From a virus, in IMG/VR virus record IMGVR_UViG_3300045988_165922, positions 37,893 through 101,892 of that record: a stretch of 64,000 nucleotides of DNA; one strand, given 5' to 3'. A program made the translations under genes and the position numbers. Shown piece after piece: positions 18,129 through 59,484 of the stretch. The notes beneath the pieces are model-generated. The model did no database searches, was not told the origin of the DNA, and was given only the letters and a program-made list of their open reading frames with translations. Every line of letters begins with the position of its first letter. Position 1 is the first letter of the stretch.

Positions 18129-18736
18129 TCACCATCCTCACTATTAGAGGCGAGTCGGGTTCGGAGTTCCCTCAACCGGCCTAACCGTTCCTCCACAGCC
18201 TGAATACGAACGTCAACCGCAGTCAACGTGTCACCATCCGGCTCAGACAACTCATACTTGCCGGACGACAGTCGTTCCAGAAAACTGGTGGGAACATCCC
18301 ATACCAATAATCGGAGTTTGTCGGGACTGAGATTCAACCCCGTATACAAGCCGGTTTTAGGCCACATGCCATCCACGAGAGCCACATTCGGCATCATGCG
18401 CGGTGGACGGTCGGGCTGATATTTTTCGACTAGGATTCGACCAGCGAACCAGATAATGTCGCTATCCTGCTTGGAGTACGCGTACAAGTAGTCGTAGGGG
18501 TTGATGGTGACTGTGACACGCTTTTCAGCGTCCACGCCCTTATGCCACCAGAAATATTTGTCTAAAGCTTCGAACACCAGCCTTTCCACACGCATATCGA
18601 ACGTCCAAGTCTTCAACTTGTCATCAAACGTTCCACCCAACGCGCGGGAGCGACGTGCGAACAACGGATTATACGGAGCCTTAACCTTCAAACGGACATC
18701 ACTGCGAGTGACCGTAATATCATCAAAACCTGCCAT
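18125..18736 (-). CDS. hypothetical protein, 203 aa
   Basis: RBS GAAAGGAAACTGTC-ATG. Confidence 0.55.
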   Translation of the reverse strand: MAGFDDITVTRSDVRLKVKAPYNPLFARRSRALGGTFDDKLKTWTFDMRVERLVFEALDKYFWWHKGVDAEKRVTVTINPYDYLYAYSKQDSDIIWFAGRILVEKYQPDRPPRMMPNVALVDGMWPKTGLYTGLNLSPDKLRLLVWDVPTSFLERLSSGKYELSEPDGDTLTAVDVRIQAVEERLGRLRELRTRLASNSEDGE

Positions 18737-28358: not shown

Positions 28359-29263
28359 TAGTGTTCCTTCTTTGCGTGGTTTTTTCTACGGATGATGAGA
28401 ATGGTGATGATGATTACCGCAAGCCAGAAGCCGCCGACGTACAGTATGAGCCATTGGTTCGTGTGGTCTTTCGGCGCGTTTTCGGGTCTGGGTGCGGGGT
28501 GCGGCATGCTGGTGCGCGTGCCGGTCACTAGGAGTCGCTTGTTGTTGATGCCGTATGGCGTGCAGGTTAGGAGTGTGGCGAGGTCTTTTCCGGCGACGAT
28601 TTTCAGTTTGGTGAAATCGGATGGGTCTACCACATCAATGCTTGTGACCTTGTAGGCGAGCGTATGTCCGGCGGTTATCAGATAGAAGACGTCACTTTTT
28701 TTGGCTTCACTGCCGAAGCCTCGTAGCTTGTCGAACATGAGCTGGTCTGCCAAACCCGTGTGCGCGGATATGACAGTATGCGTGTTCTTGCCGCCGACGG
28801 GGAGACTGGAACCATATAAGTGTCCGGCTCCAGCGGCCAACACGTTTTGCGACGTGCCATGCCGGATGGGCAGGTTGATGCCCAAGCGTGGATATTTGAT
28901 GGTGGCCATGACCCCATCCTTGGGGGTGGATAGTTGCTTCCGATACGTGTTGTCCGTTTCGGACTTGTTGACGCCTGTCCAAGGGTCTTCCGCCTCACCA
29001 AGAATGGGCTGGCCTTCCTCGTATAGGCGTTGATTGTAGGCTTGCGCGTCCGCATACTCTTGGGCGATTCGTTTCACGTCAGTGTTTTCCACGGCTTGCG
29101 CGTGGGAGTCGGTCAACCGGTTGGATTGGCTGCTGTTCGAAATCATGAGAATGAATGGGATGGTTCCGGACAGGGCGGATAGGATTAGGCAGAGAAGTCC
29201 CGCTATGGCTCGATTTCCCAAGCCTTTCGGTTTCGCCGTATGTTTTCCCAAAACCCCTCCCAT
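28358..29263 (-). CDS. class C (pilus-specific) sortase
   Basis: TLLTCTPYG catalytic motif, conserved His and Arg, C-terminal TM; stop overlaps the adhesin ATG (TAATG). Confidence 0.8.
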   Translation of the reverse strand: MGGVLGKHTAKPKGLGNRAIAGLLCLILSALSGTIPFILMISNSSQSNRLTDSHAQAVENTDVKRIAQEYADAQAYNQRLYEEGQPILGEAEDPWTGVNKSETDNTYRKQLSTPKDGVMATIKYPRLGINLPIRHGTSQNVLAAGAGHLYGSSLPVGGKNTHTVISAHTGLADQLMFDKLRGFGSEAKKSDVFYLITAGHTLAYKVTSIDVVDPSDFTKLKIVAGKDLATLLTCTPYGINNKRLLVTGTRTSMPHPAPRPENAPKDHTNQWLILYVGGFWLAVIIITILIIRRKNHAKKEH

Positions 29264-29398
29264 GCGGTTATAAAGAATCTAAAAGGTGTCGTGTCGATAT
29301 TTGGGTTCCCGACACGACAAGCGGAACATTTCATGCTTTTCCAACCGTCAAACGGTCAGAAAAGTTTTCTCATACGGCAGTATTCCAATCTTCCAATC

Positions 29399-31093
29399 TC
29401 ACGCCTTGCGACGAAGCAGCAGGGCGGAAGCGCCAGCCAACAGGACGGTCATCACGCCGAAGATGGACAGCCAGACCGCACCGGTCTTCGGCATGTCAGC
29501 GATGTTGCGGGCGTTGATGACGGTCACACCCATCTTGTCAACGTTCTCGGAAGCCAGATTGTTGGCGTCCTTATCGAACTGGCTGAGCATGTAGGAGCCG
29601 TTCGACTGGTTCACCTTGATGGTCAGGGTGAACTGCGGCAGGATGGAGCCGTTGAACGGACTCTTTGTCTCCTTGACCGTGTACTTGCCGTCGAGGCCGG
29701 TCAGCGTGAGCACGCCATTGCTAGTAGCGACGCTGGTGACGGTGTCGGTGGTGCCGGTGCTCTCGGTCAGGTCGGCCTTGCGGTAGGTCAGGCCGTCGGA
29801 GGACTTGACGAACCTGACCGGGGTGGTGGTCTGGTCGCCCTCGTACACCTTGAACTCGGCTCCGGCGAGCGGAGCGTTGTTCGTGTCGTGCTTGGTGAGG
29901 GTGAACTTGCCGACGTACACCTTGTCGGTCTGGCCCGGGGTGGTCTCATGGTCGGTGACGGTGTTCGGATTATGCGAGTATTCGACCTCGTTGGTGTTGG
30001 CGTCGGCGGTTCCGGAGACGGCGTTCTTGTTCACGTACATGCCGTACTTGACGTCAACGGCGGCATCGACCGGGAACTTGGCTTTCATCGCCACAATGTC
30101 GGATGTGGTGGTGGAGTCACCGGTGGTCGGAGCGAAGATGATGTGGAACTTGCCATCCTCAGTAGTGACCTTGTAATCGGTGTCGCAGATGAGGGTCTTA
30201 CCGTCCACGGTCACGACCATGTTGTCCTTGGCCGCGTCATAAGTCAGGCCCTTGGAATACGTATCGTTGATGGCGTAATAGTACTTGTCGTAGCCAGTCC
30301 AGTTCGGCACTTTGCTGGTCATTTCGAAGCTGACCTTCTTGCCGATAGCGGTTTCGGCGGTCGCGCCACTGTTTTCGACGGTGCCGTTTTCGGCGGCGGT
30401 AATCTTCTTCGTGACGGTGGTGCCGTGTACCTTATAGTCCACGGTGCCCAGCGTGTAGGTCTTGGCGCCGTTCTTCAACGTGGTCTTGCCATCGATGCCG
30501 GTGCCGTTGAACATGACGATGGACGCCTGACCGGTCTTGGTGGTGTCCACGACCGCGTACACGCCCGGACGGACAGAAGCGGTCATATGCTTGGCGTCGG
30601 TGCCCTTGGCGAACGCGGTGCCCTTGTCGCCGATGACAGCGGCCTCGTTCTTCAACTGGTCGATGAAGTCACGAAGCTTGCCAGCCCACGGACTGTTCTC
30701 GGAATCAAGGAGATTCTGCACGACCCACACCATCGGATTGGACGCATTATAGTCGTATCCGGCAGTCTGGTCTTTCTTGGACTTAGTGTCAATACTGGCT
30801 TTAGTCAATGCGTCAGCAATAGCAGAAGCCTTGCCCGCGTCAATCAGGTCAAAGCCGGTAATATTAGTACCATCAGTCTGCGCATACGAATAGTAGGCGA
30901 GCGGCACAGCCTTCAACGTGCGATTGCTAATATCACCATTAGCAGCGACGGTCAACGTCTGACGAGCAGCCGCATCAAACTTGGATGCGTCAACACGAGT
31001 ATCAGCCGCCATGGCGGAGCCGACTCCAGCCAAACCCATGGCACCGGCCACAAGCGTGGCGACCGTTGCCTTCAACAGGTTTTTGGTTTTCAC
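29399..31093 (-). CDS. sortase-dependent pilin backbone subunit, 564 aa
   Basis: signal peptide; E-box-like YTVKETKSPFNGS; C-terminal MPKTG + TM + RRKA; GTG start with RBS AAGGAAAG. Confidence 0.7.
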   Translation of the reverse strand: MKTKNLLKATVATLVAGAMGLAGVGSAMAADTRVDASKFDAAARQTLTVAANGDISNRTLKAVPLAYYSYAQTDGTNITGFDLIDAGKASAIADALTKASIDTKSKKDQTAGYDYNASNPMVWVVQNLLDSENSPWAGKLRDFIDQLKNEAAVIGDKGTAFAKGTDAKHMTASVRPGVYAVVDTTKTGQASIVMFNGTGIDGKTTLKNGAKTYTLGTVDYKVHGTTVTKKITAAENGTVENSGATAETAIGKKVSFEMTSKVPNWTGYDKYYYAINDTYSKGLTYDAAKDNMVVTVDGKTLICDTDYKVTTEDGKFHIIFAPTTGDSTTTSDIVAMKAKFPVDAAVDVKYGMYVNKNAVSGTADANTNEVEYSHNPNTVTDHETTPGQTDKVYVGKFTLTKHDTNNAPLAGAEFKVYEGDQTTTPVRFVKSSDGLTYRKADLTESTGTTDTVTSVATSNGVLTLTGLDGKYTVKETKSPFNGSILPQFTLTIKVNQSNGSYMLSQFDKDANNLASENVDKMGVTVINARNIADMPKTGAVWLSIFGVMTVLLAGASALLLRRKA

Positions 31094-31134
31094 CTTTGTT
31101 TTCCTTTCCTTACTAGACCCGGCGCACGTTCATT

Positions 31135-31160
31135 CATCGAACGGGGTCAATATCGGATTA
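31135..31160 (-). promoter_or_regulatory. weak partial motif copy upstream of the pilus operon (cattcctaatatacc)
   Basis: matches only the TATA-half of the consensus. Confidence 0.2.
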
Positions 31161-31228
31161 CATTCCTAATATACCGCACGCACCCTCATTAAAAACCTTG
31201 AAAGAATGCTTTCAGCCCTTAAAAATAA

Positions 31229-31256
31229 GGAGGGGCATGGCTTCCCATACCCCTCC
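31229..31256 (-). terminator. rho-independent terminator (ggaggggcatggcttcccatacccctcc) with a U-run on the minus strand
   Basis: 7-bp GC stem, then TTATTTTT on the minus strand, downstream of the flotillin gene stop. Confidence 0.65.
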
Positions 31257-31274
31257 AACATGCCCCTGAACAGG

Positions 31275-32660
31275 CTAGTTTCCGGACTGTTCGGAACCTT
31301 TCTCACTCAATGCGGAACCGGCGGCATGACCGGCCACCATACTGTTCAGCAAGGCTTTCAAATCGATGCCCAAGGATTGCGACAATCCCTCACTCAACTG
31401 GCTCACACTGTTCACCGTGTCGCCCACGAGCTTCGTGCTGTTTCCGTCGCCGTACATGGTGATGTGGTCAACCTTGGTGAGCGGTTCGGCGGCGGCTCGA
31501 ACCATGTCGGGGAGAATCTGAATGTACTGTTGGGCGAGGATGTACGTGTTGTTCATCGCATTGTAGGCTCGGCCTTGGGCGCGGATTGCCTCCGCCTCGC
31601 CCACGCCCTTGGCCTGTGCGGCGGAGCCTTCAGCCTTGCCTTTGACTTCGGTCGCGTGTGCGTCCGCGTCGGCTGTGGATTGGATGGCCTGAGCCTCCTG
31701 CTGGCGTAGGTACAGTTCCGCGTCGGCGTGTTTTTGGGTTGTGTACATTTGCGCGTCGGCCTGCTGTTCGGCGGCGTAACGGTCGGCGTCGGCCTTCTTG
31801 CGGATGGTCGCGTTCAGTTTTTGCTCTTCGATTTCGGCGTTCTTCTGTTCGAGGACTGCCTTCTTTTCGGCGGCGGCGATTTCAGCCTCTTGCTCCTTGA
31901 CTTTGAGAGTTTTGGACTGTTCGGCGGCGGTGATGCCCTTCACCGCGTCGGCCTCGGCCTGCGCCTTGTCGGAGATGGATTGGAGTTCGGCTCGTTTCAG
32001 GTCGAGCTGGTTCTGACGGACGGCCACATCCTGTTCCGCGTTGATGGACGCGAGCTTCGCATTCCGGCTGATTTCGGCGGCCATTTCAGCGCCCATGTTG
32101 GCGATGACGTTCTGACGGTCGGTGAAGTCTTGAATGTTGAACGTGGTCAATTGAAGGCCAAGCCGTTCCATATCCACGCGGGCGGATTCGGCCACGGTCG
32201 CGGCGAACGTGTCCCTGTTCTCCATGAGCTCCTTCAACTCGGTCTTGCCGATGACCTCGCGCAGCTTGCCCAAGAGCACCTGCGTCACGTCCTTCTCCAT
32301 TCGCTCCTTGGACTGGTTCAGATAGTTCTTGGCGGCGTTCTCCAACGCCTTCACCTGTTTACCGTTCTCGTCCACGGTCATGGTCTCGGACGCTATCTGG
32401 AAGTTCGCGACGGCGTTCACGTCGATGAGGATTGCGTCCTTCGTCGGAATCGGCGTGTCGGTTCTCAGGAGCGACTGCACCGCTCCGAGGGAGAGCCAGT
32501 CCACGCGCATGATGAAGGGTATGATGAACGCGCTTCCGCCGGAGACGAAGCGTCGTCCACCCGGCCCGGTGATGACCATTACCCGGTCGGCGGGGCAGAC
32601 CTTGTAGCTTGCGGTTGCGAGCAGGATGATGAGTATCGCCACTGCCGCGACGATTATCAA
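31275..32660 (-). CDS. flotillin-like SPFH/band-7 domain protein (YqiK-like), 461 aa
   Basis: N-terminal TM, SPFH domain, long Ala/Glu/Gln-rich coiled coil (AEAEAIRAQGRA); start region ambiguous (TTG/CTG). Confidence 0.75.
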   Translation of the reverse strand: MIIVAAVAILIILLATASYKVCPADRVMVITGPGGRRFVSGGSAFIIPFIMRVDWLSLGAVQSLLRTDTPIPTKDAILIDVNAVANFQIASETMTVDENGKQVKALENAAKNYLNQSKERMEKDVTQVLLGKLREVIGKTELKELMENRDTFAATVAESARVDMERLGLQLTTFNIQDFTDRQNVIANMGAEMAAEISRNAKLASINAEQDVAVRQNQLDLKRAELQSISDKAQAEADAVKGITAAEQSKTLKVKEQEAEIAAAEKKAVLEQKNAEIEEQKLNATIRKKADADRYAAEQQADAQMYTTQKHADAELYLRQQEAQAIQSTADADAHATEVKGKAEGSAAQAKGVGEAEAIRAQGRAYNAMNNTYILAQQYIQILPDMVRAAAEPLTKVDHITMYGDGNSTKLVGDTVNSVSQLSEGLSQSLGIDLKALLNSMVAGHAAGSALSEKGSEQSGN

Positions 32661-32691
32661 TGTTGTTGGCAGTGACTTTTCCTTTCTTTTT

Positions 32692-32715
32692 TTGTGGGCA
32701 TACCCACTATGACAG
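32692..32715 (-). promoter_or_regulatory. degenerate promoter/leader motif copy (ttgtgggcatacccactatgacag)
   Basis: consensus-like copy upstream of the flotillin gene. Confidence 0.45.
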
Positions 32716-32723
32716 AACTTGTT

Positions 32724-34064
32724 TCAGAACTCGTTTTCGAAACCTGCGGCCATGTCCGCGAATTTGGAGCATTCGCCCATGAACGCGAGATTGAACGTTT
32801 CGGTAGGCCCGTTACGGTGCTTGGCGAGAATCACGTCGGCTTCGCCCGGACGTTCCTCACGGTCGTAGTATTCGGGACGATGCACGAGGAACACCATGTC
32901 GGCGTCCTGTTCGATGGAACCGGACTCTCTCAGGTCGGACAGTTCCGGCTTCTTGTCGGCACGCTGTTCCGCATTACGGTTCAACTGGGAGAGCACGACC
33001 ACGGGGCATTGCAGTTCCTTGGCGAGCATTTTGCATTGGCGGGAGAAGTTCGACACTTCCTGCTGACGGTTCTCGACGGTTTTACCGGAGGACATGAGTT
33101 GCAGGTAGTCGATGACGATAAGCTTCAACCCGTTGACCTTGCGGCTGAGAGCACGGCATTTCGCACGGATGGTGCTCATGTTGATGATGGCGGAATCATC
33201 AACCCACAATGGTGCCTTCTCGACCTGATGGCAGAGCGCGTTGAGTTTGTTCCAATCATTCGAGTTCAGATTCTCGGGATGTTGGAACGATGCGAGACGG
33301 ATGCCTGTTTCGGCTGCGAACATGCGTTGCATGAGTTCGTGACCGCCCATTTCCAGACTGAAAATCACAGTCGGCAGACCCTTGTGCAGTGCGGCGTTAC
33401 GCGCGAAATCCATGCCGAGAGTACTCTTGCCCATGCCCGGACGGCCCGCGACTATGACCATTTGTCCGGCTTGCAATCCGTGCGTCAACGCGTCGATGTC
33501 ACGGAAGCCGGTGGGTGTTCCGAACTCGTTCGGATTCTGTGACATTTCATCCAACTGTTGGAGTATTTCGTCGGACAGGCGGTATGCGGTCTTCAACTCG
33601 TCGTCTTCGGAACGGCTTGAATCCTCCAACGAGAACGCGGCCTCCAACGATTTGCTGAGCACATCTTCGGCTGACGCGTCGGATACGTTGCTCATCTGTT
33701 GCAACTGCTGTCCGACCATGTTGATGTGGCGGAGGATGGCCGCGTCACGAATCTGCTTGATGAAATAGTCACTGTTGTTCGACGTGGGCGCGGAGCCGAC
33801 AAGCTGGGCGATGTAGTCGATGCCGCCGACCTGTTCCAACTGTCCGTTGTCCATCATGTGCGAGGACAGCATTTGCGCGTCCACACGGTTATTGTCTGCG
33901 GCCAGTTCCTTTATATTATAGAAGATGGTCTGGTTGGTCGGCTGGTAGAAGTCCTCTTCGGAAAGTTGGCTGATGACCTTGTCCAACGTTTCCGCGTCTT
34001 GAAGCATGGCCCCCAACAATACTTGCTCGGCCATGTCCTTGTGGATTGGTGTGGGGACGCTCAC
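32724..34064 (-). CDS. dnaB: replicative DNA helicase DnaB
   Basis: N-terminal DnaB domain (LLGAMLQD), Walker A GRPGMGKST, RecA-like C-terminal domain; 446 aa. Confidence 0.85.
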   Translation of the reverse strand: MSVPTPIHKDMAEQVLLGAMLQDAETLDKVISQLSEEDFYQPTNQTIFYNIKELAADNNRVDAQMLSSHMMDNGQLEQVGGIDYIAQLVGSAPTSNNSDYFIKQIRDAAILRHINMVGQQLQQMSNVSDASAEDVLSKSLEAAFSLEDSSRSEDDELKTAYRLSDEILQQLDEMSQNPNEFGTPTGFRDIDALTHGLQAGQMVIVAGRPGMGKSTLGMDFARNAALHKGLPTVIFSLEMGGHELMQRMFAAETGIRLASFQHPENLNSNDWNKLNALCHQVEKAPLWVDDSAIINMSTIRAKCRALSRKVNGLKLIVIDYLQLMSSGKTVENRQQEVSNFSRQCKMLAKELQCPVVVLSQLNRNAEQRADKKPELSDLRESGSIEQDADMVFLVHRPEYYDREERPGEADVILAKHRNGPTETFNLAFMGECSKFADMAAGFENEF

Positions 34065-34461: not shown

Positions 34462-36225
34462 TCAGATTGCGTCCGGGAACTGTTCGTTCGGAGAGAATTT
34501 GAGGAGTTTCACAGTCGCTCCCTCACGCCATTTGTTCCACGCTTTGATGGTGATTCCGACGATGCGTCGGCGGGTTGGACGGTCGCTGTGCGCTCCACGC
34601 TTATTGATATCGAACAGCGTGTTGCGGAGTACGAGAATGGGGCTTCCCTCGTCAAGGTTAGCGCCGGAGGCGAGCATGTCGAAGAACCGTTCGCACGCCT
34701 CACCGTCGATTTCGTTGAACGTCCAGTAGAGGAGCGCGGCCATGCTGGTGGACATGAGATGATTGCTTTTCGTGTAGAACGTGCTGGCCTGTCGTAGCGT
34801 ATCCTCCAATTGCGGAGTGCTTTCGATGAACGTCAGCAGTTCATTTCGGGTCGGTGACATGTTGTTGACGCATGCGGCTTCCACACCCAACTGTTCGCTC
34901 AGATAGATGGAACGGGCCACGGTGGAAAGCTGTTTGGCGTTGTTACGGCCTTTCAGTTCGAGCACGTTAGCCATGGTGCGGACCTTGCCCGCATCCATGG
35001 TCTCCTGCGTGTCTTCGGGCAGTCCGCGAATGACCAGAGTGCGGAACGGAACACCGGATTCGACGCATGCGAGGAGCCTGTGCTGTCCGTCCAACAAGCG
35101 TCCCGTGTTGCTGAATTTGATGGCTTCGCCGTTCATTTTCCAAGCCTTCTGCGCCATGGTTCGGGCGAACAGTTCGACCTGTGTGCGGCTCACGTTGCGG
35201 TTGTTGGTGTTCACGCCGAGCATTTCCTTGGCAACGTCCGGTGTGATGGTTTCGACCCGTCCGGTGATGCTGTCCCAATCGTATTCGTCGGTTTCACTGG
35301 CGTAGGATGGCGTGGCCTTGGGTGCTGGCTCTTCCGGTTTCAAATGGATGAGCAACGTGGTTTTCGGAGCGCCGGAATGCCGTCTGATTTCGGTTTTCGG
35401 TGGTTTCACTTCGACCGTCTCGTACTGTTCGGATTCCTCGACCTGATTCATGGCGAACGCGAACGCGGTCATGGTGAACGCGAGCATGAACCTGTCCACG
35501 CTTCGTTTCGGAGGGAACTGTTTCATTCCGTCGATGATGCGGGTGGCGTCCGAATGGGTGATGTATGGGCAGTGGTTCACAACCGTGTCCAGTCCGCCCT
35601 CGTATTCCTTATGGGTGAGGAAGACGAATGGTGCGAGGGGAGTACGCGCCTGTGCCATTCCCTTGAAGCATTGGCCGACCTCATTGTAGATTTCACCAAC
35701 CTGACGGTAACGTGAAACAGTGTCGATGCCGTACTCGTCCACGGGGTTCGTGTACTCGTATTCGTTGTTTTTGAAGATGCGTTCGTTGTATCGGCTGGCC
35801 TCACGCATTCCGGAGCAACGTCCGAAACCGAGCGTGGTTCCGCTGCTTTTCGTACCGTCAGTCCGTTTCAGATTGTCTTTGCTCAGCCAGTAGGCTTCCA
35901 TATCCGCGATGAATGTTTTCGCCGCGACTTTCTTGGTGAGGTTCCGTCCGGTCATACGGGCGAAGTATTCTCCTTCGATGCCGGTGAGGACTGGCAGTCC
36001 GGTTCCGACGAACAGATTATCAGGCAGTAGGCCGTACCATTCGGGGTTGATTTCATGGTCGCTCATGTAGGAGAGAATCCGTCCCACGCTGTCACGGTCG
36101 ATGAACACTGTCCGCGCGTTGGCGAATGAGTCAACGTCGAGATTCAACGCCTTGCATGTCGGGAGGAGGTCTTTCTGAATCATGGTCATGAACCGTGGTT
36201 CGGTTTTGATGTCTTTGTTAGGCAT
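34462..36225 (-). CDS. ParB/Srx-like nuclease-domain protein with a large N-terminal domain of unknown function, 587 aa
   Basis: ParB-like motif FSNTGRLLDGQHRLLA in the C-terminal half; RBS GAAGGAAGGAAAC. Confidence 0.6.
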   Translation of the reverse strand: MPNKDIKTEPRFMTMIQKDLLPTCKALNLDVDSFANARTVFIDRDSVGRILSYMSDHEINPEWYGLLPDNLFVGTGLPVLTGIEGEYFARMTGRNLTKKVAAKTFIADMEAYWLSKDNLKRTDGTKSSGTTLGFGRCSGMREASRYNERIFKNNEYEYTNPVDEYGIDTVSRYRQVGEIYNEVGQCFKGMAQARTPLAPFVFLTHKEYEGGLDTVVNHCPYITHSDATRIIDGMKQFPPKRSVDRFMLAFTMTAFAFAMNQVEESEQYETVEVKPPKTEIRRHSGAPKTTLLIHLKPEEPAPKATPSYASETDEYDWDSITGRVETITPDVAKEMLGVNTNNRNVSRTQVELFARTMAQKAWKMNGEAIKFSNTGRLLDGQHRLLACVESGVPFRTLVIRGLPEDTQETMDAGKVRTMANVLELKGRNNAKQLSTVARSIYLSEQLGVEAACVNNMSPTRNELLTFIESTPQLEDTLRQASTFYTKSNHLMSTSMAALLYWTFNEIDGEACERFFDMLASGANLDEGSPILVLRNTLFDINKRGAHSDRPTRRRIVGITIKAWNKWREGATVKLLKFSPNEQFPDAI

Positions 36226-37197: not shown

Positions 37198-37374
37198 ATG
37201 AGCAAACAGACGGAAAACAACATCAACCTGACACTGACACTCATCACAATCGTCAGCGCATTCCTCATGTGGAGACAGGATTACGGCCACGTGGTAATGG
37301 CAATCACCAGCATCACATTCCTACTCAGCTCCACCGCACTGTTCGCTCACTTCATCAAGAAACTCGACGCCTAA
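37198..37374 (+). CDS. small membrane protein, 58 aa
   Basis: start MSKQTENN with RBS AAGAAGAAACC; two hydrophobic helices. Confidence 0.45.
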   Translation: MSKQTENNINLTLTLITIVSAFLMWRQDYGHVVMAITSITFLLSSTALFAHFIKKLDA

Positions 37375-37444
37375 AAACAAAAAAGGAATGCCCCAGCCCG
37401 AACGGACTGGGGCATAGGCATATTCGCAAGAACGAAGAAAACCA

Positions 37445-37825
37445 ATGGACGATAAAAACAACACCGAACGAGAGCCGAGAACCGAAGTGGAACGACTCCT
37501 GTTCAAGAACGAACGCATGCAGGACGCGCTGCTCGACCTCAAGGACACCATGAGCAGAATGATTGGCGAAGGCCGACTGCCAAACGACGACGAGGTACAC
37601 CAATGGTTTGAGGGAATCGACCGCAAACTCGAACACGAGGCCGCTGACCGTGAGGTGTTGCTGTTCAACCATGGGGCCATGACCACAGTGCTCCCGAAGT
37701 CCACTGAACGATACCAACCCGACCTTCAAGTCCGATATCAGGAAATTCTCACCACATGCAACAAAGCGTATGCGGACGCCGACTACAAATATTGGATTGG
37801 CCGTTTCCAACAGGCCGGACTCTGA
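37445..37825 (+). CDS. hypothetical protein, 126 aa
   Basis: ORF track; RBS GAAGAAAACCA. Confidence 0.5.
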   Translation: MDDKNNTEREPRTEVERLLFKNERMQDALLDLKDTMSRMIGEGRLPNDDEVHQWFEGIDRKLEHEAADREVLLFNHGAMTTVLPKSTERYQPDLQVRYQEILTTCNKAYADADYKYWIGRFQQAGL

Positions 37826-37884
37826 CCTGAAAAACGCAATCCGAGCACAGTGGACAACACTGAAAGGAGTATTCGGACAGGACA

Positions 37885-38226
37885 ATGCCGGAAACCATAC
37901 AGACATACCATCCAACGTTCGAGAAGGCCAAGAAGCTCTTCAATCTGCGTAAAAGATTGTGGGAGATAGCCGACGGTAAAAGCGACGGAACAATCTCATA
38001 TGAGGAGGCGAACCATCTCGCCGTGGACGCGGTGGCGACCGCCAACGGAGGAATGCCACGCGCCACGAGCGGCCCCATGGTAAGACTCTGCAAGCTTTGC
38101 ACCAACGGTTGGATTCGTGAAGCGGCAAACGAGATGGGCTTGGTTTACCCGGACTTGGACAGCCCGGAACGGTGGGGCAAACATCGAGACCATAGCCGTA
38201 AAAAGGAAAGGAAGGCAACGGTTTGA
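37885..38226 (+). CDS. small protein of the C-x-NGWIREA motif family, copy 1
   Basis: CTNGWIREAANEMGLVYPDLDSPERW; tandem paralog of 38223..38564. Confidence 0.5.
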   Translation: MPETIQTYHPTFEKAKKLFNLRKRLWEIADGKSDGTISYEEANHLAVDAVATANGGMPRATSGPMVRLCKLCTNGWIREAANEMGLVYPDLDSPERWGKHRDHSRKKERKATV

Positions 38227-38564
38227 GCGGCAACGGATTCGGCAAGGAAGACATAAGCAGAACAGCCATTCCGGCACGCCCATACGCCAAGGATATGGCT
38301 ACCATCAACCGTCTGATAGCAAGGTTGCAAACCATTTCGGACGATAAGGCCAAAGGGAAAATCACATTCCAACAGGCGAACAAGAAGGCTGTGGAAGCAA
38401 TCCACAAGGCACGGAACACCAAGTCGAAGTCCCTGCAACGCAAGCCATTAGATTATTTAGAACGTATCTGCGAGAACGGTTGGATTCGGGAAGCTGTGCG
38501 AAAGATTCCCGAACTGTACCCGTATCTCGACCATCCAGATTTGTGGCTTCGTAAAGGCGCCTGA
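38223..38564 (+). CDS. small protein of the C-x-NGWIREA motif family, copy 2
   Basis: CENGWIREAVRKIPELYPYLDHPDLW; overlaps copy 1 by 4 nt. Confidence 0.5.
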   Translation: MSGNGFGKEDISRTAIPARPYAKDMATINRLIARLQTISDDKAKGKITFQQANKKAVEAIHKARNTKSKSLQRKPLDYLERICENGWIREAVRKIPELYPYLDHPDLWLRKGA

Positions 38565-38794
38565 TGTATTCCAAAGAGCAGATATGTTGCATGGTTTCTC
38601 TCATAATATTGTCGGCGTTGAGCTTGACCGCGCTGGTGCATTACGCTCGACTGTCGATAGGAAGAATGAGTCGGATGCCTGACGAGAAATCCCGTTCAGA
38701 CCTGTTCAACTATCGGCTGATGACCGTCGTGTCACTGCTGGTGTTGTCGGTTTCGGTGGGTTCCATCATCGTCTACGGTTCCTCTCTCAAATAG
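38564..38794 (+). CDS. small membrane protein, 76 aa
   Basis: ORF track; two TM helices. Confidence 0.4.
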   Translation: MYSKEQICCMVSLIILSALSLTALVHYARLSIGRMSRMPDEKSRSDLFNYRLMTVVSLLVLSVSVGSIIVYGSSLK

Positions 38795-38896
38795 ATTGGA
38801 TTGGAAGACTGCCGTATTTATACTTCCTTCTACTTCTCAAACATTGACCATAACGTTTATTGACAAGAATCATTTTCAGAAAGCAGGAAGGTCAGT
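38795..38896 (+). promoter_or_regulatory. AT-rich promoter region of the AAA-ATPase cassette
   Basis: low-GC spacer carrying ttgacc/ttgaca -35-like hexamers. Confidence 0.4.
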
Positions 38897-39853
38897 ATGT
38901 TAAACAGCACGGAAATGCTTCGACTGGTCAGAGCCGCATGCAACGGAGACCATTTGAAACTGTCCCAGCAAATCGACTTGCTGGCCGACTCGGTGGAGAA
39001 AGCCAAGCCGACCGCTTACACCACGAATCTACGTCGGCTGGCGGAGTCGGAACGAGAGAAGGGACTGGCTGTCAATGCGAGTCTGGCACCGGTTGACGGG
39101 TTGACCGAACCGTTGCTCCCACCGGACGGTACTCATAAGCCTGTGTGGGATAAGACCGTGCGGGAACTGTTGGACGGACTGGTTGCCGAGTATAAGAAAC
39201 TGGATGTTCTGACAGCGCATAATCTCGCTCCCCGTAATCGAATCATACTCACTGGAGCGCCCGGCACGGGTAAGACCACCTTTGCTTCCATCCTGTCGAA
39301 GAGGCTTGGACTGGACGGTGTTATTCTTCGTGCAGACCGTGTTATCAGCAGTCAGCTCGGCAAGACGTTAACCAATATCGCCTTGGTGTTCGACCGGCTC
39401 CACATGGAACGAAAGCTCCTGTTCATAGACGAATGCGACATGCTTCTTGCCCGACGCGACAACTCCCATGACGTTGCCGAAATGCGTCGAGCCACCAATC
39501 TCGTACTCCAGAAAATCGACACGCTACCAGATGATTGCATTCTCGTCTGCGCCACCAACATGAGCAGTCTTATAGACCGTGCCGCATGGCGTAGGTTCGA
39601 CGTCCGGGTTCATATGACACTACCGGACAAGGCGACTTCAAGACTTATCATCATGCACCGACTCAAGGAGTTGAACATCCAAGCCGACGGTCAACCGCTC
39701 GACATCGACATAGAAGATGTTAGTCCGGCCCTGCTTGTCCAAACCGTGGACAATCTGGCCCGCAAGACTTTGATTTCCGGTTCGGAAACCATTCCGACCG
39801 ACCTGTTCGTCAATGCTTTCAACTCTCTGAAGATGGAGGTTCCCAACCAGTGA
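38897..39853 (+). CDS. classical AAA family ATPase, 318 aa
   Basis: Walker A GAPGTGKTT, Walker B LLFIDECD, sensor-1 CATN, Arg finger RRFD. Confidence 0.75.
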   Translation: MLNSTEMLRLVRAACNGDHLKLSQQIDLLADSVEKAKPTAYTTNLRRLAESEREKGLAVNASLAPVDGLTEPLLPPDGTHKPVWDKTVRELLDGLVAEYKKLDVLTAHNLAPRNRIILTGAPGTGKTTFASILSKRLGLDGVILRADRVISSQLGKTLTNIALVFDRLHMERKLLFIDECDMLLARRDNSHDVAEMRRATNLVLQKIDTLPDDCILVCATNMSSLIDRAAWRRFDVRVHMTLPDKATSRLIIMHRLKELNIQADGQPLDIDIEDVSPALLVQTVDNLARKTLISGSETIPTDLFVNAFNSLKMEVPNQ

Positions 39854-40116
39854 ACCGTGACGGATACAAGTTCGATATCAATGTCCGCAGAAACGGTTTC
39901 ATGTCATATCTGTGGAGCGCCGAAGTGGAAGATGAAGGATTCTTCACTCCCATTGCGAACGGTACTGCCCACACTCTCAACGGCGGCAAGAAAGCCGCTA
40001 TGAAACAAGCGAGAAAGTGGGCGCAACACCAGCTCGCCCACCCCAGTGAAAAGGAAAGGTGGGCGGAATGTACGACGATGAGCAACACCAAAACCAGACA
40101 CCGGCGAAGTCACTGA
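39850..40116 (+). CDS. hypothetical protein, 88 aa, translationally coupled to the AAA ATPase (GTGA overlap)
   Basis: ORF track; start overlaps the ATPase stop. Confidence 0.45.
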   Translation: MNRDGYKFDINVRRNGFMSYLWSAEVEDEGFFTPIANGTAHTLNGGKKAAMKQARKWAQHQLAHPSEKERWAECTTMSNTKTRHRRSH

Positions 40117-40367
40117 AACGTTCCGGAAGGCAACCGAAACTATCCGACGTCGTCATGCTCGACCGGGGTTGTCAACTGTGGATTCGTGAAGCCCGTAAAG
40201 GGAACATCACTGACACGTCGAAGACCTTGGAGAAGATTCGATACCAGCTTCGATTGGAACGTCGTGTGGCCGGACAATCCGGCTCTGGACTTCGTAGACC
40301 TGTGGGTAGGGATAAAAAACCCGATACGGATGGGAACGGTTCAAAGCCGGATAGGAAAGACTTATAA
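40068..40367 (+). CDS. small protein with a C-QLWIREA motif (third member of the WIREA family)
   Basis: ATG MYDDEQ with RBS AAGGAAAGG; overlaps the 3' end of the upstream ORF by ~49 nt. Confidence 0.35.
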   Translation: MYDDEQHQNQTPAKSLKRSGRQPKLSDVVMLDRGCQLWIREARKGNITDTSKTLEKIRYQLRLERRVAGQSGSGLRRPVGRDKKPDTDGNGSKPDRKDL

Positions 40368-40374
40368 CCTATAA

Positions 40375-40413
40375 GGGTGCCGGTTGACGATGCCGTCAAC
40401 CGGCACCCTTTGG
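40375..40413 (+). terminator. rho-independent terminator (gggtgccggttgac gatgcc gtcaaccggcaccc + TTTGG)
   Basis: perfect 14-bp stem immediately after the 40367 stop. Confidence 0.7.
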
Positions 40414-40491: not shown

Positions 40492-41256
40492 ATGAACGAA
40501 GGAACCTATGGGCTGGAGACCCTGAAAGCCGACTATCATACGATAGTCGGCTACGATATCGGCTATCTCACCGCGGAATCCTATCCGCTGTTCGCACCCT
40601 ATCGTGCGAAAACCAAGAACAGTTTCTCCGGTAGAGTACCGAGACTGTTAAGCATAATCATCACCACTCTCATCAACACGCCAAGCCGCGAATGGGATGC
40701 GGAAACCCGCACGCTCACCATCGGTGACGACTTCTTCTTCCTCGCCAACAAATGCGGGTTGAACAGTGGAGGAGACGGACGCACTACCGTCCGGAACCAG
40801 CTTCTCATGCTCTCGTCAATCCAGTTCACCGGAGCAGACGGAGTCAAAGTCACGCCGGTCGAACACACCGAAATCACCGCCGACAGTCTCACTATCGAGC
40901 ATCGGAAAATCACGTTCACGGAACCGTTCGTAAAAATGATGACAAGGAACGTCCGGCAGATGCCGTTGAAGTGTCTGTACCCCAACGCGGGTAGCGCCAT
41001 AGCGATAGACCTGCTCGTATTGGCGGCATTGTATTGTCCGAACGACCATAGGCTCATCATCGAACGGGCAGACCTTCCATCACTGCTTCCAGCAAGCAGG
41101 CAAAGCCTCTCCAAGCAGAATCTTCTAAATAGATTCAAGGAGTTAAACGACAGGCAGAACGAGTGGACGTATCGTATAACGAAATACAGCGTGACCATCA
41201 GCCCGTTCGGAGTGTACTCGTCCGAAGACGCTTTGAGATTACGTCGCAGACAATAG
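40492..41256 (+). CDS. hypothetical protein, 254 aa; possible DNA-binding or replication-associated, function unproven
   Basis: ORF track; RBS TAAGGAGACACA; flanked by terminators on both sides. Confidence 0.5.
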   Translation: MNEGTYGLETLKADYHTIVGYDIGYLTAESYPLFAPYRAKTKNSFSGRVPRLLSIIITTLINTPSREWDAETRTLTIGDDFFFLANKCGLNSGGDGRTTVRNQLLMLSSIQFTGADGVKVTPVEHTEITADSLTIEHRKITFTEPFVKMMTRNVRQMPLKCLYPNAGSAIAIDLLVLAALYCPNDHRLIIERADLPSLLPASRQSLSKQNLLNRFKELNDRQNEWTYRITKYSVTISPFGVYSSEDALRLRRRQ

Positions 41257-42149: not shown

Positions 42150-42840
42150 AACGGGAAAAAACAATTCCCCGCGCCGCCCGCGCCGGTAGGCCAACATGAA
42201 TAGCGGATTCAAAAAAAGAAAAGATGACCAAAACCAAAAAGACAAAAAGATAGAAAACACTCCCCACCAAAAATCAGAAAACAAACACCATCACATCAAA
42301 AAGAAGAACCAAGAAAACCAGAAAGAAAAAAGAAAAAGAAGAACATAAGAGAAATAAGAGAAGACATCCTAAGCAAATAGAAGCAACAGAAGAACAGGAC
42401 AACACCCAGCAACATAATCAGGAAAAGAACAACAGAGAAAAGGACAACAGAAGAAGAAACGCCTACCCCTAAATCGGGAATACAACGTATGAAAACAACA
42501 GAGGCAACGCAACCATCCACAAAAGAACAGCACATCAACCCATATGACATACAGAACAGAAGAACGACATCACCAAACACCCCAAGAAACAAGAAAAGCA
42601 ACAAGCCACACCATCACAAGACAAACCGAACATCAGTATCAACACGACGGCACACAACAACCACAGCACAAAACGACAACAGCGAAAGGTCAATAGTCTC
42701 ACTAACAAGGTCAACGACAATCAAAACAAGGTAACATCAATACAGGAACAGCCAATGCAATGAAAAAAGCAACAGCAGAACCAACAAAAAACTAAATATC
42801 AAAAAACTATAAATGCCAGAACTCGGACAAAACCGTAAAC
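42150..42840 (+). other. ~700-bp strand-asymmetric A-rich (A+C-rich, T-poor) low-complexity intergenic tract
   Basis: plus strand is mostly A with very few T; lies between divergent gene starts 42045 (-) and 42863 (+). Confidence 0.7.
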
Positions 42841-42862
42841 GTTCCGATGAAAACAACGGAAC

Positions 42863-45722: not shown

Positions 45723-48383
45723 ATGGGTAATCCGAACTGGTATCAGATAACCAGAACGTTGCAACAGTTAGACCCGGACGAGCAACGTTCGAAAGTGGAG
45801 AGCATTCCCGCCGAACTGGATGGTTGCACCCTTCTCCTCATCAAGAAGGGCGAGGAGCCGGTCAAGGAATATATTTACGGCGACGGCGAGGGAATCGTCA
45901 ACGCCGGACAGTTGGCTGGTTTTGACGCGAGACTGGTCGAAGGTGATGAGGAACCGGTGTTGCCGGATGGCGTGAACAGTGCGGCGCATCCTCTCATCCC
46001 GTTCCGTGCCCGGTTGAACTCGAAAAGCAACATGGAGAAAATGCGGACGAACTATTCCGGCGTTCGTACAAGCATCGAGAAGGTCATGCCGCCGGACAGT
46101 TATGTGAGCGTCACGCTTCGCAATCAGGGATACTTCGAGCAGATTCGTATTCGTAATTGGATTAGCGACGAATACAATGCGGTCGAGGATTCAAGCGAAC
46201 TTGCTTCGACCAACACGATGTGCGCCCGTGTGAGTTTCGGTTGCCGTCAGGTTTCGCGTAACCGACAGCTTGCGCAGAAGATTGGTCAAATCATCTGCCC
46301 GCTCATATCCAACATGTCCAGTCATGCGAGCCGTCCGAAATTCGGTTTGCTGTTCGTCAGCATGCTGTTGGAAGTGTTGTCCGTGATTTGGAGTGTGTGC
46401 GGTCTTGCAAGAGGATACGTGATGGATGGCGTGTTCCCATTGTTCCATTCCGCTTGGGGTTTCGGAATCGCGCTTCCACTGCTTGCGGTGACGTTGGTCG
46501 TGTTCCTGTTCCTCATGCTGTTGTCGTGCATTCCGTTCGTTTACATTCCGCGACCTCAGATTGCTGGTGGAGCGGTGGCGCTCATGCTTTACCTGCTGTT
46601 GGGGTTGCTTCCGCTTCCGACGTTCATTCCGATTCTTTTCGTTCCGCTTCTTGTCTTCGCGTTCATCCGTTGGAAGAATTGGACGTTGTGGGATGATATT
46701 TTCCAAACGCCACGCAGATATTATGCGATTGCGAACGACCGTGGCGCGAACGAGTCCGATAATCAGACCCGTCTTGGCGTGCGCACTCATAAGGAGCGCG
46801 TGTCGGCTTATGGTGCGCAACGTACCACGTTGATTCTTTCCCCGATTATCGTAAGTTCCGTGTTCACTCCGGTCACTCAGGGAGTGGCGATGAAACAGGA
46901 GTTGCATCCGGTTCCGGAAGTATTGTCGCATGATGGCATCTTCCTTGGGAAGGATGATACGGGACGTAACTGTTATCTCGACCCGTCGCAATTGTTCGGC
47001 GGTATCGCCATCAACGGCGAGGCCGGTTCCGGTAAGACCGTGCTCACCCATGGCATCAGCCAGTGGGCCATCAGCGCACGCGAGACCACCAGTCCGAAAA
47101 TCTGGGGACGCGACTCCCGTATCATCCATTTTTGGATGAAGGATGATACCGGTGTTAACGTGTTGGAACGTTATCGCAAACGTCACGGTTTCACCAGTCC
47201 GCAACGCGTCGTCTATTTGGCAGACCCGAACAGTGTGTGCTTGGACATGCTTGGCATGAAGGACGGGAACAATGCGATGGAGACTGCGGCGAGCGTGGCG
47301 AAGACCATGCGTTACTCGTTCGATGACGGTGATATTCTGAACGACTCGCAGAACATCATCACCCAAGCGTTGACCATCGGCGTGGCGGTTGACCGTTACG
47401 TGCAGGAGGAGCGTAAGCATAATCCCGAATCCGCGAACAAGGATTGGGAAAGCGAGATTGTGAAACGTTGCCATCAGCTCGAACAATCGTATCCGGGTGC
47501 GGAACAGTTGCGAATGCAGTTGAGTCCAATCGGATGGGCCGTCGTCGCATTATGCGGTTCCGACGGTCAGGCCGGTTCCGCGAAAGCGTTGGGTCATGTG
47601 TGCCGCGCGTTGAGCATGGAATTGAAGAGTGGCTACATGTTCGAGGAGATGACGTATGCCGCCCGTGCCGCCGAGCAATTATATGGCCGTCCGGACGCGG
47701 CTGGTCATACGGTTCGTTCCGACCGTGACATTCTCGCCAAGACGAACGCCTCGTTGAACAAGGTGAACCAGTTCCTTCCCATCGAACACATGTTCACGGC
47801 ACGTCGCGGCAAGGTGACTTGGACGAACATTCTCGACCATGCTGGCGATTATCACATTGTGCTCGCACCGCATAATGGTTATTCGTTGCCGGAACGTATG
47901 GATAAGATTCTCGGCGGCTGGCTCATGTACCGTTTCTGGAATACGGTGTTCGCGCATTGCAAGGATTGGGACAAGGCTGGCAAGTGGACGATGCTCGTAT
48001 GCGACGAGTTGAGCCTGTTGGCTAACGGCAATGACGGTATCATGCCCGCGTTGCGTGAGCAGGGTCGTTCGTTCGGTCTTCTTCTCGTGTTCGCCACCCA
48101 GTATCCGACCCAGTTGTCCGACGCGATGTTGGATTCGTTCATCGGCTATTCGACGTTCATCACATACAATACGACGATTCCGCGTATTGCCGATATGACG
48201 GCGAAACGTTTGACGAACAATGATGGTGAGGATGGTTGGCGTTCGGGCGCGGTGATGAATCTTCCACGTTATGCGGCGGCTGTTCGCACTCGAACCCAAG
48301 AACAGTTGCAACCGACGTTCCTTGTTCATGTGAACGATTTCGATAACGGTTATCGCAATGGTGACATGGATGATGATGACTAG
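45723..48383 (+). CDS. FtsK/VirD4-type coupling ATPase (T4CP-like) with central TM region, 886 aa
   Basis: TM helices at ~200-330; Walker A INGEAGSGKT; Walker B WTMLVCDELSLL; RBS AAAGGAAAGGAAGG. Confidence 0.7.
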   Translation: MGNPNWYQITRTLQQLDPDEQRSKVESIPAELDGCTLLLIKKGEEPVKEYIYGDGEGIVNAGQLAGFDARLVEGDEEPVLPDGVNSAAHPLIPFRARLNSKSNMEKMRTNYSGVRTSIEKVMPPDSYVSVTLRNQGYFEQIRIRNWISDEYNAVEDSSELASTNTMCARVSFGCRQVSRNRQLAQKIGQIICPLISNMSSHASRPKFGLLFVSMLLEVLSVIWSVCGLARGYVMDGVFPLFHSAWGFGIALPLLAVTLVVFLFLMLLSCIPFVYIPRPQIAGGAVALMLYLLLGLLPLPTFIPILFVPLLVFAFIRWKNWTLWDDIFQTPRRYYAIANDRGANESDNQTRLGVRTHKERVSAYGAQRTTLILSPIIVSSVFTPVTQGVAMKQELHPVPEVLSHDGIFLGKDDTGRNCYLDPSQLFGGIAINGEAGSGKTVLTHGISQWAISARETTSPKIWGRDSRIIHFWMKDDTGVNVLERYRKRHGFTSPQRVVYLADPNSVCLDMLGMKDGNNAMETAASVAKTMRYSFDDGDILNDSQNIITQALTIGVAVDRYVQEERKHNPESANKDWESEIVKRCHQLEQSYPGAEQLRMQLSPIGWAVVALCGSDGQAGSAKALGHVCRALSMELKSGYMFEEMTYAARAAEQLYGRPDAAGHTVRSDRDILAKTNASLNKVNQFLPIEHMFTARRGKVTWTNILDHAGDYHIVLAPHNGYSLPERMDKILGGWLMYRFWNTVFAHCKDWDKAGKWTMLVCDELSLLANGNDGIMPALREQGRSFGLLLVFATQYPTQLSDAMLDSFIGYSTFITYNTTIPRIADMTAKRLTNNDGEDGWRSGAVMNLPRYAAAVRTRTQEQLQPTFLVHVNDFDNGYRNGDMDDDD

Positions 48384-58458: not shown

Positions 58459-59484
58459 ATGGCTAAGAAGAAAGGCGGCATGTCCGCCGGTTCCCTGCTT
58501 GGCGGCATTCTGGTCGTGTTGACGGCCATGGTGCTCATCGTGAATCTTGGATTGTGGACTCCCATGTCGAAGATTTTCGGATTGCCGGAAATCAACAGTC
58601 TGTCCCAGTTGATGCCGGGTGAGGATTCCAAGGTGAAGCCGGATGTGAAATTGGGGTTGAAGGAGCCTCCCTTGAAGCCGTCCGGCTCCAATTCGCAAAC
58701 CAATACTCCAGAAGCCACAGAAACGCCCTCAGAAACGACGCAGACACAAAACGGGGACAATTCCTCAAGTCAAGCACAAAAAGCCTCTACAAGCGTTCCT
58801 GAAGGTGCTTTAAGCCCCATCACCACGAAACAGGCGCTTGACAAACTCGCTGACATCGAAACCGCAACCCCGCACACCAAAGGATACAACCGCAAAACCG
58901 ACTTCGGCACATGGCAGAACAGCAACCAGCTCTGCGGTTACGGCACCACCCGCGACTACATCCTCAAACGCGACATGACCGACGTGACCATGGACAAGAA
59001 CTGCAAGGTGCTCACCGGAACCCTCCAAGACCCATACACCGGCAAGACCATCAAATTCCAACGCGACACCTACGAGACCGTCAACGGCAAACAGAAGAAA
59101 ACAGGCGGGGACAGCATGGCCGTCCAAATCGACCATGTGGTGGCGGTCAACGACGCTTGGGCCAGCGGACTGTGGAAGGACTCGCGCAAGGGCGACCGCA
59201 TCACCTACGCGAACGACCCGGAAGTGCTCGTCGCGTCCGAAGGAGAAGCGAACAACATCAAACAGCAGGGCGTGAACCTCGTGAAGGACGAGGCGTTGAA
59301 CGGTTCCTCGACCAAGTGGAAGGACGCAACGCCCAGCATTTGGCTCCCGTCCAACAAGACGTACCAATGCTCGTATATGGCTAAACGCGTGTACATCAAA
59401 GACAAGTACAAGCTGTCCATGAGCAGTTGGGAAAAAGCCGAAACGAAGTCGTTCCTCACGCAATGCGTGGCCGACGGCAACTGA
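58459..59484 (+). CDS. membrane-anchored secreted protein with a His-Me-finger/HNH-like motif; putative extracellular nuclease, 341 aa
   Basis: N-terminal TM; Ser/Thr-rich linker; DHVVAVNDAW motif; function unverified. Confidence 0.4.
   Translation: MAKKKGGMSAGSLLGGILVVLTAMVLIVNLGLWTPMSKIFGLPEINSLSQLMPGEDSKVKPDVKLGLKEPPLKPSGSNSQTNTPEATETPSETTQTQNGDNSSSQAQKASTSVPEGALSPITTKQALDKLADIETATPHTKGYNRKTDFGTWQNSNQLCGYGTTRDYILKRDMTDVTMDKNCKVLTGTLQDPYTGKTIKFQRDTYETVNGKQKKTGGDSMAVQIDHVVAVNDAWASGLWKDSRKGDRITYANDPEVLVASEGEANNIKQQGVNLVKDEALNGSSTKWKDATPSIWLPSNKTYQCSYMAKRVYIKDKYKLSMSSWEKAETKSFLTQCVADGN

Follow-up and report, generated by a model that had tools for sequence, protein, structure and literature searches.

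An IetA-family ATPase without its protease as probable exchangeable cargo in a backbone operon related to the Bifidobacterium megaplasmid pMP7017

Does an ATPase gene on a mobile element work with the small genes that surround it, or does it occupy its position alone? The 64-kb stretch of DNA analyzed here (positions 37,893 to 101,892 of IMG/VR record IMGVR_UViG_3300045988_165922, called the window below) raises this question through a AAA ATPase gene at 38897-39853. An earlier note on the same DNA had read this gene, an open reading frame (ORF) of 88 amino acids (aa) and a third, overlapping ORF as an insulated three-gene cassette with its own promoter and terminator. Our analysis partly confirmed that observation and partly supported the interpretation placed on it. 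We find that the locus is a relative of IetA without IetS, not a self-contained three-gene unit. The gene very probably codes for a lone IetA-family ATPase that lacks a protease partner and travels as interchangeable cargo, occupying a variable slot within a backbone operon of a plasmid related to pMP7017. The gene in question is:

38897..39853, + strand: ATPase ORF, 318 aa, assigned to the IetA family and the classical AAA clade by profile matches, motifs and a predicted model

The earlier note had recognized a classical-clade AAA ATPase, and the protein bears this out. Residues 116-241 match the Pfam AAA family (PF00004, 5.6e-21) with 75.8 bits against a gathering cut-off of 21.2 bits. All catalytic motifs are intact: Walker A (GAPGTGKT, residues 120-127), Walker B (LLFIDE, 174-179), sensor-1 (LVCATN, 216-221) and the arginine of the second region of homology (RRFD, 232-235). 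The closest solved relatives by sequence are p97/Cdc48 D1, Rix7 and spastin. An AlphaFold2 model with a predicted local distance difference test score (pLDDT) of 85 gave Foldseek matches to Ycf2-FtsHi, p97, proteasome Rpt subunits and Rix7. These sequence and fold relatives place the predicted protein in the classical clade. The model consists of a three-helix N-terminal domain at residues 4-59 (helices at 4-15, 19-36 and 40-59), a low-confidence linker and a single AAA module. Relatives keep an ATG or TTG at the start position together with a conserved ribosome-binding site; their longer gene calls of 330-336 aa, which overlap the upstream gene, are therefore probably over-extended.

Over its whole length, the ATPase resembles IetA rather than any known ATPase of replication or transfer. 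It matches the PADLOC profile for IetA (PDLC02196) at 2e-62, with residues 3-309 aligned onto profile positions 3-320 of 374, and PHROG 3757 at 2.8e-63. The NCBIfam family NF042959 (IteA_antiphage, "anti-phage ATPase IteA") matches at 1.2e-51 and 176 bits, and the second-best NCBIfam match is CdvC at 1.7e-13. The N-terminal domain of about 110 aa, described earlier as unique, turns out not to be so: searched by themselves, residues 1-110 still align colinearly with three IetA profiles (5e-5 to 2e-4). The ATPase also aligns colinearly with six IetA proteins that have S8 peptidase partners. Judged from these profiles and alignments, it is a member of the IetA family with an N-terminal domain of the IetA type.

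The earlier note was also right to place the gene on a mobile element and to link its family to defense and toxin-antitoxin biology, since the relevant family is IetA of the IetAS system. IetAS is a toxin-antitoxin of plasmid stability and incompatibility on pTiC58 and was reportedly presented as an anti-phage system by Gao et al. 2020. The partner in this system is a subtilisin-like protease. IetA was first described as the antitoxin to this protease toxin, stabilizing pTiC58; the ATPase is the antitoxin and the protease the toxin in IetAS-type modules, and IetAS later came to be seen as a defense against phages, though the literature has yet to explain how it works (PMC13069673; PMC8562856).

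We looked for the protease partner beside homologues of the ATPase and in the window itself. The full-length plasmid homologues of the ATPase are 28-35% identical to it, and an S8 peptidase gene follows the homologue in six of the seven cases checked (Rhizobium, Hymenobacter, Xanthomonas, Dongshaea, Methylotuvimicrobium and Agrobacterium). The lone exception is a Burkholderia gladioli plasmid without an adjoining S8 gene. Both of the full-length annotated temperate-phage homologues checked also have the ATPase and S8 pair. A phmmer search of ORFs of at least 60 aa with two IetS queries (E <=10) found no IetS-like ORF in the 64-kb window. No S8 family appears among the Pfam-annotated neighbors at any related locus, and the ORFs downstream of the ATPase have no Pfam match. 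Relatives from GTDB species genomes were set aside as uninformative, being generic AAA proteins that match the AAA core only, at 37% identity or less; a search for IetS in their flanks returned nothing.

The genomic setting identifies the kind of element that carries the gene. The protein of 886 aa encoded at 45723-48383 aligns over 99% of its length, with 59% identity, to the coupling-type ATPase found in B. longum megaplasmids and in pMP7017 of B. breve. The flanks of the window encode a sortase, SpaA-type pilins, a 2066-aa RCC1-repeat surface protein, DnaB, a ParB-domain protein and a ParA-like protein. The operon with the ATPase gene lies between the DnaB and ParB-like genes on one side and the ParA-like and coupling-ATPase genes on the other. 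Backbone homology and synteny thus make the window a divergent relative of the pMP7017 family, whose members are conjugative megaplasmids (PMC10832533). In pMP7017 itself, repB lies about 65 kb from the region syntenic to the window (PMC8313286). A nucleotide search of PLSDB with the window gave no match. The nearest relatives of the ATPase are found on metagenome contigs of up to 220 kb, and the only named close relative is a partial protein from Bifidobacterium adolescentis. The database cluster that contains the identical ATPase protein has 812 member sequences. From these comparisons, we regard the window as distantly related to pMP7017, a conjugative megaplasmid of Bifidobacterium.

Within this setting, the ATPase gene is part of an operon of roughly eight co-oriented genes, from about 37198 to 40367. 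The other features of the operon and its 3' flank are listed below; relatives are named by labels such as L001 or P0001.

37198..37374, + strand: 58-aa small membrane protein, first gene of the operon, backbone; called in all relatives, with a homologous ORF in L110
37445..37825, + strand: 126-aa backbone protein with homologues in relatives
37885..38226, + strand: 113-aa NGWIREA protein, copy a, backbone, with homologues in relatives
38223..38564, + strand: 113-aa NGWIREA protein, copy b, a tandem paralogue by its similarity to copy a
38564..38794, + strand: 76-aa protein directly 5' of the ATPase gene, with two hydrophobic segments in its hydropathy profile
38795..38896, + strand: low-GC spacer of 102 nt (36% GC) with a conserved ribosome-binding site
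39850..40116, + strand: 88-aa ORF whose start overlaps the ATPase stop
40068..40367, + strand: third ORF, 99 aa from ATG (102 aa from the GTG at 40059), with LDRGCQLWIREA; backbone gene
40373..40410, + strand: perfect 17-bp hairpin, stems 40373-40389 and 40394-40410, probable terminator
40492..41256, + strand: 254-aa backbone protein 3' of the hairpin, with homologues in relatives

Close relatives share one gene order: the 58-, 126-, 113-, 113- and 76-77-aa genes, the ATPase, the 88-aa ORF, the third ORF, the hairpin and the 254-aa gene. The 126-aa protein has homologues in pMP7017 (39% identity), B. longum p1, L110 and L112; its ratio of nonsynonymous to synonymous substitution rates (dN/dS) is 0.21, and it has no family match in Pfam, NCBIfam or PHROG. 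The 254-aa protein is 37% identical to a 259-aa protein of pMP7017 (E 1e-48) and 68-83% identical to its counterparts in sister lineages. The 76-aa protein is 65% identical to the L005 copy (dN/dS 0.21). It is also weakly similar to the small membrane ORFs found at the same position in L110 and L112 (shuffle p ~0.001-0.004), and BLASTP between these proteins finds nothing.

We compared the contents of the site between the small membrane ORF and the third ORF across lineages.

Window, L001 and L005: small membrane ORF of 76-77 aa; slot filled by the IetA-like ATPase; 88-aa ORF present; third ORF present
L010: small membrane ORF present; slot filled by the ATPase; 88-aa ORF mostly deleted; third ORF present
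L112-L115: small membrane ORF of 60 aa; slot filled by an unrelated 211-aa membrane protein; 88-aa ORF present; third ORF present
L105: small membrane ORF partial, at the contig end; 211-aa gene deleted to 40 codons; 88-aa ORF present; third ORF present
L110: small membrane ORF of 60 aa; slot empty; no 88-aa ORF; third ORF present
pMP7017: small membrane ORF not seen; no ATPase; no 88-aa ORF; a 64-aa ORF as positional homologue of the third ORF

In pMP7017 the 126-aa homologue comes first, followed by a single WIREA protein, the 64-aa ORF and, last, the 254-aa homologue. In L110, the third ORF directly follows the small membrane ORF. The L112-L115 locus carries the gene for the 211-aa membrane protein at 3676-4311 and a NUDIX-like 212-aa gene at 2335-2973, the latter separating the 126-aa gene from the WIREA gene; L105 derives from this lineage by deletion. 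This comparison of lineages marks the third ORF and the small membrane ORF as backbone. By the same comparison, the operon appears to behave as a cargo hotspot, and the ATPase is one of several alternative occupants of the slot. The three genes of the proposed cassette are not gained and lost together among relatives, and the third ORF occurs in pMP7017 and two sister lineages that lack the ATPase. We also considered an inserted unit made of the small membrane protein, the ATPase and the 88-aa protein. This unit was rejected because L110 and L112 have a small membrane ORF at this place but no ATPase, and the 88-aa homologue likewise occurs in L112 and L105 where the ATPase is missing.

The ATPase gene has also moved between lineages as an allele. 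L001 and the window are about 99% identical across 13 kb, except at roughly 38700-39700 (~0.9-1 kb), where identity drops to 64-82%. Over this segment L001 is 89-97% identical to the L005 lineage, and elsewhere the two are about 70% identical. This switch of identity shows that the 5' two-thirds of the ATPase gene was exchanged between plasmid lineages. A second mosaic patch is present at 37297-37497, where the window and L001 are 64-84% identical amid flanks of about 99% and L001 is 95-97% identical to the L005 lineage.

The ATPase is under purifying selection in all of its domains. Comparing the window with L005, dN/dS is 0.16 for the whole gene. By part, with substitutions at the first, second and third codon positions in brackets, it is 0.19 for the N-terminal domain (28/24/54), 0.09 for the core (24/12/65) and 0.27 for the C-terminal part (26/12/32). 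The range across the three domains is 0.07-0.27, at a dS of about 1.3. Diversifying selection on the N-terminal domain was considered and rejected: its dN/dS is 0.19, and the divergence of L001 reflects allele replacement. The ATPase ORF is intact in every lineage seen.

Neither boundary of the proposed cassette is likely to isolate it from the operon. The earlier note had described a low-GC promoter spacer in front of the ATPase. The low GC is real, falling in the lowest 0.9% of 102-nt windows of the 64-kb sequence; the promoter match is at chance level. The candidate, TTGACC-18-AATCAT (9/12) at 38844-38873, belongs to a class of sites found twice, compared with 3.9 +/- 1.9 times in shuffled sequences. 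The extra length and the low GC are due to a lineage-specific insertion of about 52 nt, which is present in the alleles of the window, P0001 and P0002 and absent from L001, L005 and L010. A private promoter may exist in the spacer, but judged from this alignment it would not be a conserved feature. On the other side, the hairpin described as a 14-bp-stem terminator proved stronger (17 bp, -37.4 kcal/mol, z = -9.2), with one to three T residues after it. L005 and L010 have stems of different sequence at the same site (12 bp and ~9 bp, each with T6), showing that the position of the hairpin is conserved and its sequence is not. The hairpin is probably the terminator of the whole operon rather than of a three-gene unit. 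Insulation is therefore not supported: the ATPase gene is one of a run of co-oriented genes, the spacer insertion is confined to some lineages, and the hairpin probably closes the entire operon.

The third ORF was correctly identified as an overlapping WIREA gene, and it is truly coding and under purifying selection. It overlaps the 88-aa ORF in a different frame, with a dN/dS of 0.18 and substitutions relative to relatives of 11/5/27 by codon position. The ATG at 40068, with GGAAAGG ahead of it, is more likely to be the start than the GTG at 40059. Its homologues in L110, L112 and L105 are 54-60% identical, all at loci without the ATPase, and its positional homologue in pMP7017 is 36% identical over 53 aa (pairwise E 8e-6). 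A C-x-LWIREA motif in the third ORF is a shorter form of the C-x-NGWIREA shared by the tandem 113-aa paralogues. Copies a and b of these paralogues are 39% identical (E 3e-18), and pMP7017, L110 and L112 have a single NGWIREA copy each. Copy a (dN/dS 0.11) is 36% identical to a 107-aa protein of pMP7017 and 58-69% identical to the homologues in L110 and L112. The WIREA family of small proteins has no database annotation.

What might a lone IetA-family ATPase do on such a plasmid? Since no cognate toxin is encoded in cis, its role most likely lies in trans. The ATPase would assemble into a ring whose three-helix N-terminal domain captures a protein target, and ATP hydrolysis would keep the target inactive or unfold it, as IetA supposedly does to IetS. 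The targets would be proteases of the IetS type, encoded by the recipient cell or by rival plasmids, and an orphan antitoxin, anti-addiction or anti-defense factor of this sort could help the plasmid become established. We base this reading on the antitoxin role of the family, the lack of a toxin in cis, the position in a cargo slot of a conjugative plasmid and the reported occurrence of IetAS in genomes of Bifidobacterium (bioRxiv 10.1101/2025.01.20.633837). By analogy with IetA, action in trans on an IetS-type protease as an orphan antitoxin or anti-defense factor is a tentative proposal that we consider possible, if rather unlikely in this exact form. The best explanation overall, which joins the identity of the gene to a mechanism in trans, comes nearer to an even chance and still falls short of it. 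A bolder version is doubtful: an orphan antitoxin that disarms the IetS toxins of recipients or rival plasmids, encoded in an "establishment" operon with cargo swapped between lineages (the ATPase, the NUDIX-like protein and the 211-aa membrane protein). If it is true, the ATPase would be the first known inhibitor of IetAS.

Several observations weigh against this best explanation. The ATPase is only about 30% identical to canonical IetA, and its 176 bits fall far under the 510-bit equivalog cut-off of NF042959. Pore loop 1 reads SQLG (residues 152-155) and contains no aromatic residue. An aromatic-hydrophobic-Gly pore loop 1 is typical of processive unfoldases. The corresponding loop is F-M-G or Y-L-G in some S8-partnered IetA proteins and H-F-G in the Burkholderia homologue, and some further IetA homologues likewise have no aromatic residue there. 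In a rough neighbor-joining tree, the protease-less actinobacterial ATPases (those of the window, L001, L005, L007, L008 and P0017) group together, and a deep clade of this kind could mean an old, protease-independent function. Relatives within the clade adjoin DNA-processing genes, namely those for an HTH_36 protein and a topoisomerase-like protein. Finally, the ATPase stop and the GTG start of the 88-aa ORF overlap as GTGA, just as the earlier note had described. Every lineage that has both genes keeps this 4-nt overlap, in the form ATGA where identity is about 70%, which leaves room for some coupling of the two.

The DNA-processing neighbors fit a different role, in which the ATPase is an accessory remodeler for plasmid DNA transactions (replication, conjugative processing or establishment) and has nothing to do with toxins. 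Its targets would be the surrounding proteins of the backbone operon or the nearby DnaB and ParB-like proteins. The gene is embedded in the backbone operon between the DnaB/ParB-like and ParA-like/coupling-ATPase genes, and its nearest relatives outside the megaplasmids have suggestive neighbors. In L007, the stop of the HTH_36 gene overlaps the ATPase start; in L008, the topoisomerase-like gene precedes the ATPase on an element with a TrwC relaxase. In Rhodobacter phages, a related AAA gene stands alone in the early/replication region, and the depth of the protease-less clade points the same way. The backbone, however, can dispense with the ATPase, which is absent from pMP7017, B. longum p1, L110 and L112-L115, and an unrelated membrane protein fills the slot in another lineage. 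The whole-length similarity to IetA, rather than to any known replication or transfer ATPase, also speaks against this role, and we consider it unlikely.

The conserved overlap could instead be the mark of a two-gene toxin-antitoxin or defense module made up of the ATPase and the 88-aa protein, with the small protein in place of IetS. All window-like relatives have the pair flanked by the same backbone genes, the overlap persists between lineages of about 70% identity, and the IetA-like ATPase of the Burkholderia gladioli plasmid is followed by a 100-aa protein instead of an S8 peptidase. The 88-aa ORF itself behaves differently from a dedicated partner. Homologues without any ATPase lie upstream of the third ORF in L112-L115 (37% identity, E 1e-17), L105 and perhaps L106, while L010 has an intact ATPase and has lost most of the 88-aa ORF. 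The earlier note had seen its novelty in the set of partners, a claim that these separations undo. The ORF is open in several lineages and weakly constrained, with a dN/dS of about 0.5 and substitutions of 20/17/27 by codon position between the window and L005. Its family is tiny (six matches among 5.8 billion proteins, nine among 1.8 billion cluster representatives), and searches of Pfam, PADLOC, NCBIfam and PHROGs return nothing for the protein. A profile search against PDB sequences gave a best E of about 0.8 (MmoD and a dsRBD protein), and the AlphaFold2 model is weak (pLDDT 65). A presumed likeness to HicB, YegP or dsRBD proteins had no support from any tool and was dropped. Among the distant protease-less relatives, we found no shared partners; the small neighbors of these ATPases are mutually dissimilar. 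These comparisons suggest that the 88-aa gene is separable and associated with the backbone rather than with the ATPase, and we regard the two-gene module as improbable.

The last alternative, a functionless ATPase decaying from a former IetAS, would explain the missing canonical partner and the in-frame deletions at the 3' end of the L010 gene, but it is very improbable because all domains are under purifying selection (dN/dS 0.07-0.27 over a dS of about 1.3), the catalytic motifs are intact in a protein modeled at pLDDT 85, and the ORF is unbroken in every lineage seen and moved between lineages as an allele.

Other regions of the window carry features of the same plasmid. On the - strand, 22158-34064 holds a surface and maintenance block with a 2066-aa RCC1-repeat/SdrD-like protein, a sortase, a pilin with Gram-positive backbone-pilin and SpaA domains, a Band-7 protein and DnaB. 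Such a block is typical of Gram-positive conjugative megaplasmids. A 587-aa protein at 34462-36225 (- strand) matches PHROG 5931 in its C-terminal half (2.5e-69) and has a ParB-like DGQHR motif. pMP7017 either lacks its N-terminal half or has a different one, the match there being limited to residues 262-584, and the gene is largely missing in the L005 lineage. Between a 240-aa gene (- strand) and the ParA-like gene (+ strand) lies an intergenic stretch of about 650 nt (42200-42850) that is nearly free of T on the + strand. It has a GC content of 0.43, an AT skew of +0.57, short A-rich tandem repeats and 40-54% identity to the L005 lineage, and could serve as a cis site with strand asymmetry or encode an RNA.

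Two further regions may relate to defense. A 409-aa reverse transcriptase (RT) at 19006-20235 (- strand) matches the generic PADLOC "RT" profile PDLC01136 at 6e-26 and DRT UG9/UG20 at about 1e-16. It is followed by two - strand ORFs without matches, at 18125-18736 (203 aa) and 17121-18128 (335 aa), and the three could form a defense-type RT module. Near the right end, on the + strand, are genes for a protein with a GmrSD C-terminal nuclease-like domain (58459-59484, 2e-6) and an N6/N4 DNA methylase (62137-63093, 1.8e-51), which may have restriction or anti-restriction functions.

The locus matters for the study of IetAS in several respects. A relative of IetA that is naturally without a protease and kept by selection could help to tell apart the activity of the ATPase by itself and its effect on the protease. 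Should it act in trans, the protein would be an anti-defense or anti-addiction factor of a new kind. Annotation tools that need both genes will skip the locus, and tools that need one gene may miscall it as IetAS. The comparison also brings out a variable slot for cargo in the backbone of a family of Bifidobacterium megaplasmids from the infant and adult gut that is widespread but poorly known.

We compared the locus with known systems. The pMP7017 family shares with the window the syntenic DnaB, the ParB-domain protein, the operon of 126-aa, WIREA, third-ORF and 254-aa genes, the ParA-like gene, a 398-aa gene and the 886-aa coupling-type ATPase, at 36-59% amino acid identity. The window is far more divergent than the known members, and pMP7017 and B. 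longum p1 have neither the ATPase nor the 88-aa ORF at the syntenic site. Vps4/CdvC-type ATPases resemble the window protein in architecture only, with a three-helix N-terminal domain, a flexible linker and one classical AAA module; their sequence similarity to it is restricted to the AAA core. The Burkholderia gladioli plasmid bgla_3p offers a closer case in WP_013691918.1, an IetA-family ATPase (PADLOC 3.6e-69) that is likewise on a conjugative plasmid with no adjoining S8 gene. This protein is 33.6% identical to the window ATPase and falls outside the actinobacterial clade in the neighbor-joining tree, and the 100-aa hypothetical protein encoded after it is unrelated to the 88-aa ORF.

IetA of IetAS itself is alike in its colinear full-length similarity, which includes the N-terminal domain, in its single classical AAA module and in its occurrence on a conjugative plasmid. 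The window ATPase differs in being about 30% identical to it, in having no S8 IetS nearby and in belonging to a separate, protease-less actinobacterial clade. The Mycoplasma TA132/133 system (PMC8562856) and the helicase-containing ietHAS (PMC13069673) are likened to the locus by their descriptions, as systems in which an IetA-type ATPase restrains a toxic partner. Both keep the S8 protease effector that the window lacks, and both show that this ATPase family tolerates changes of partner.

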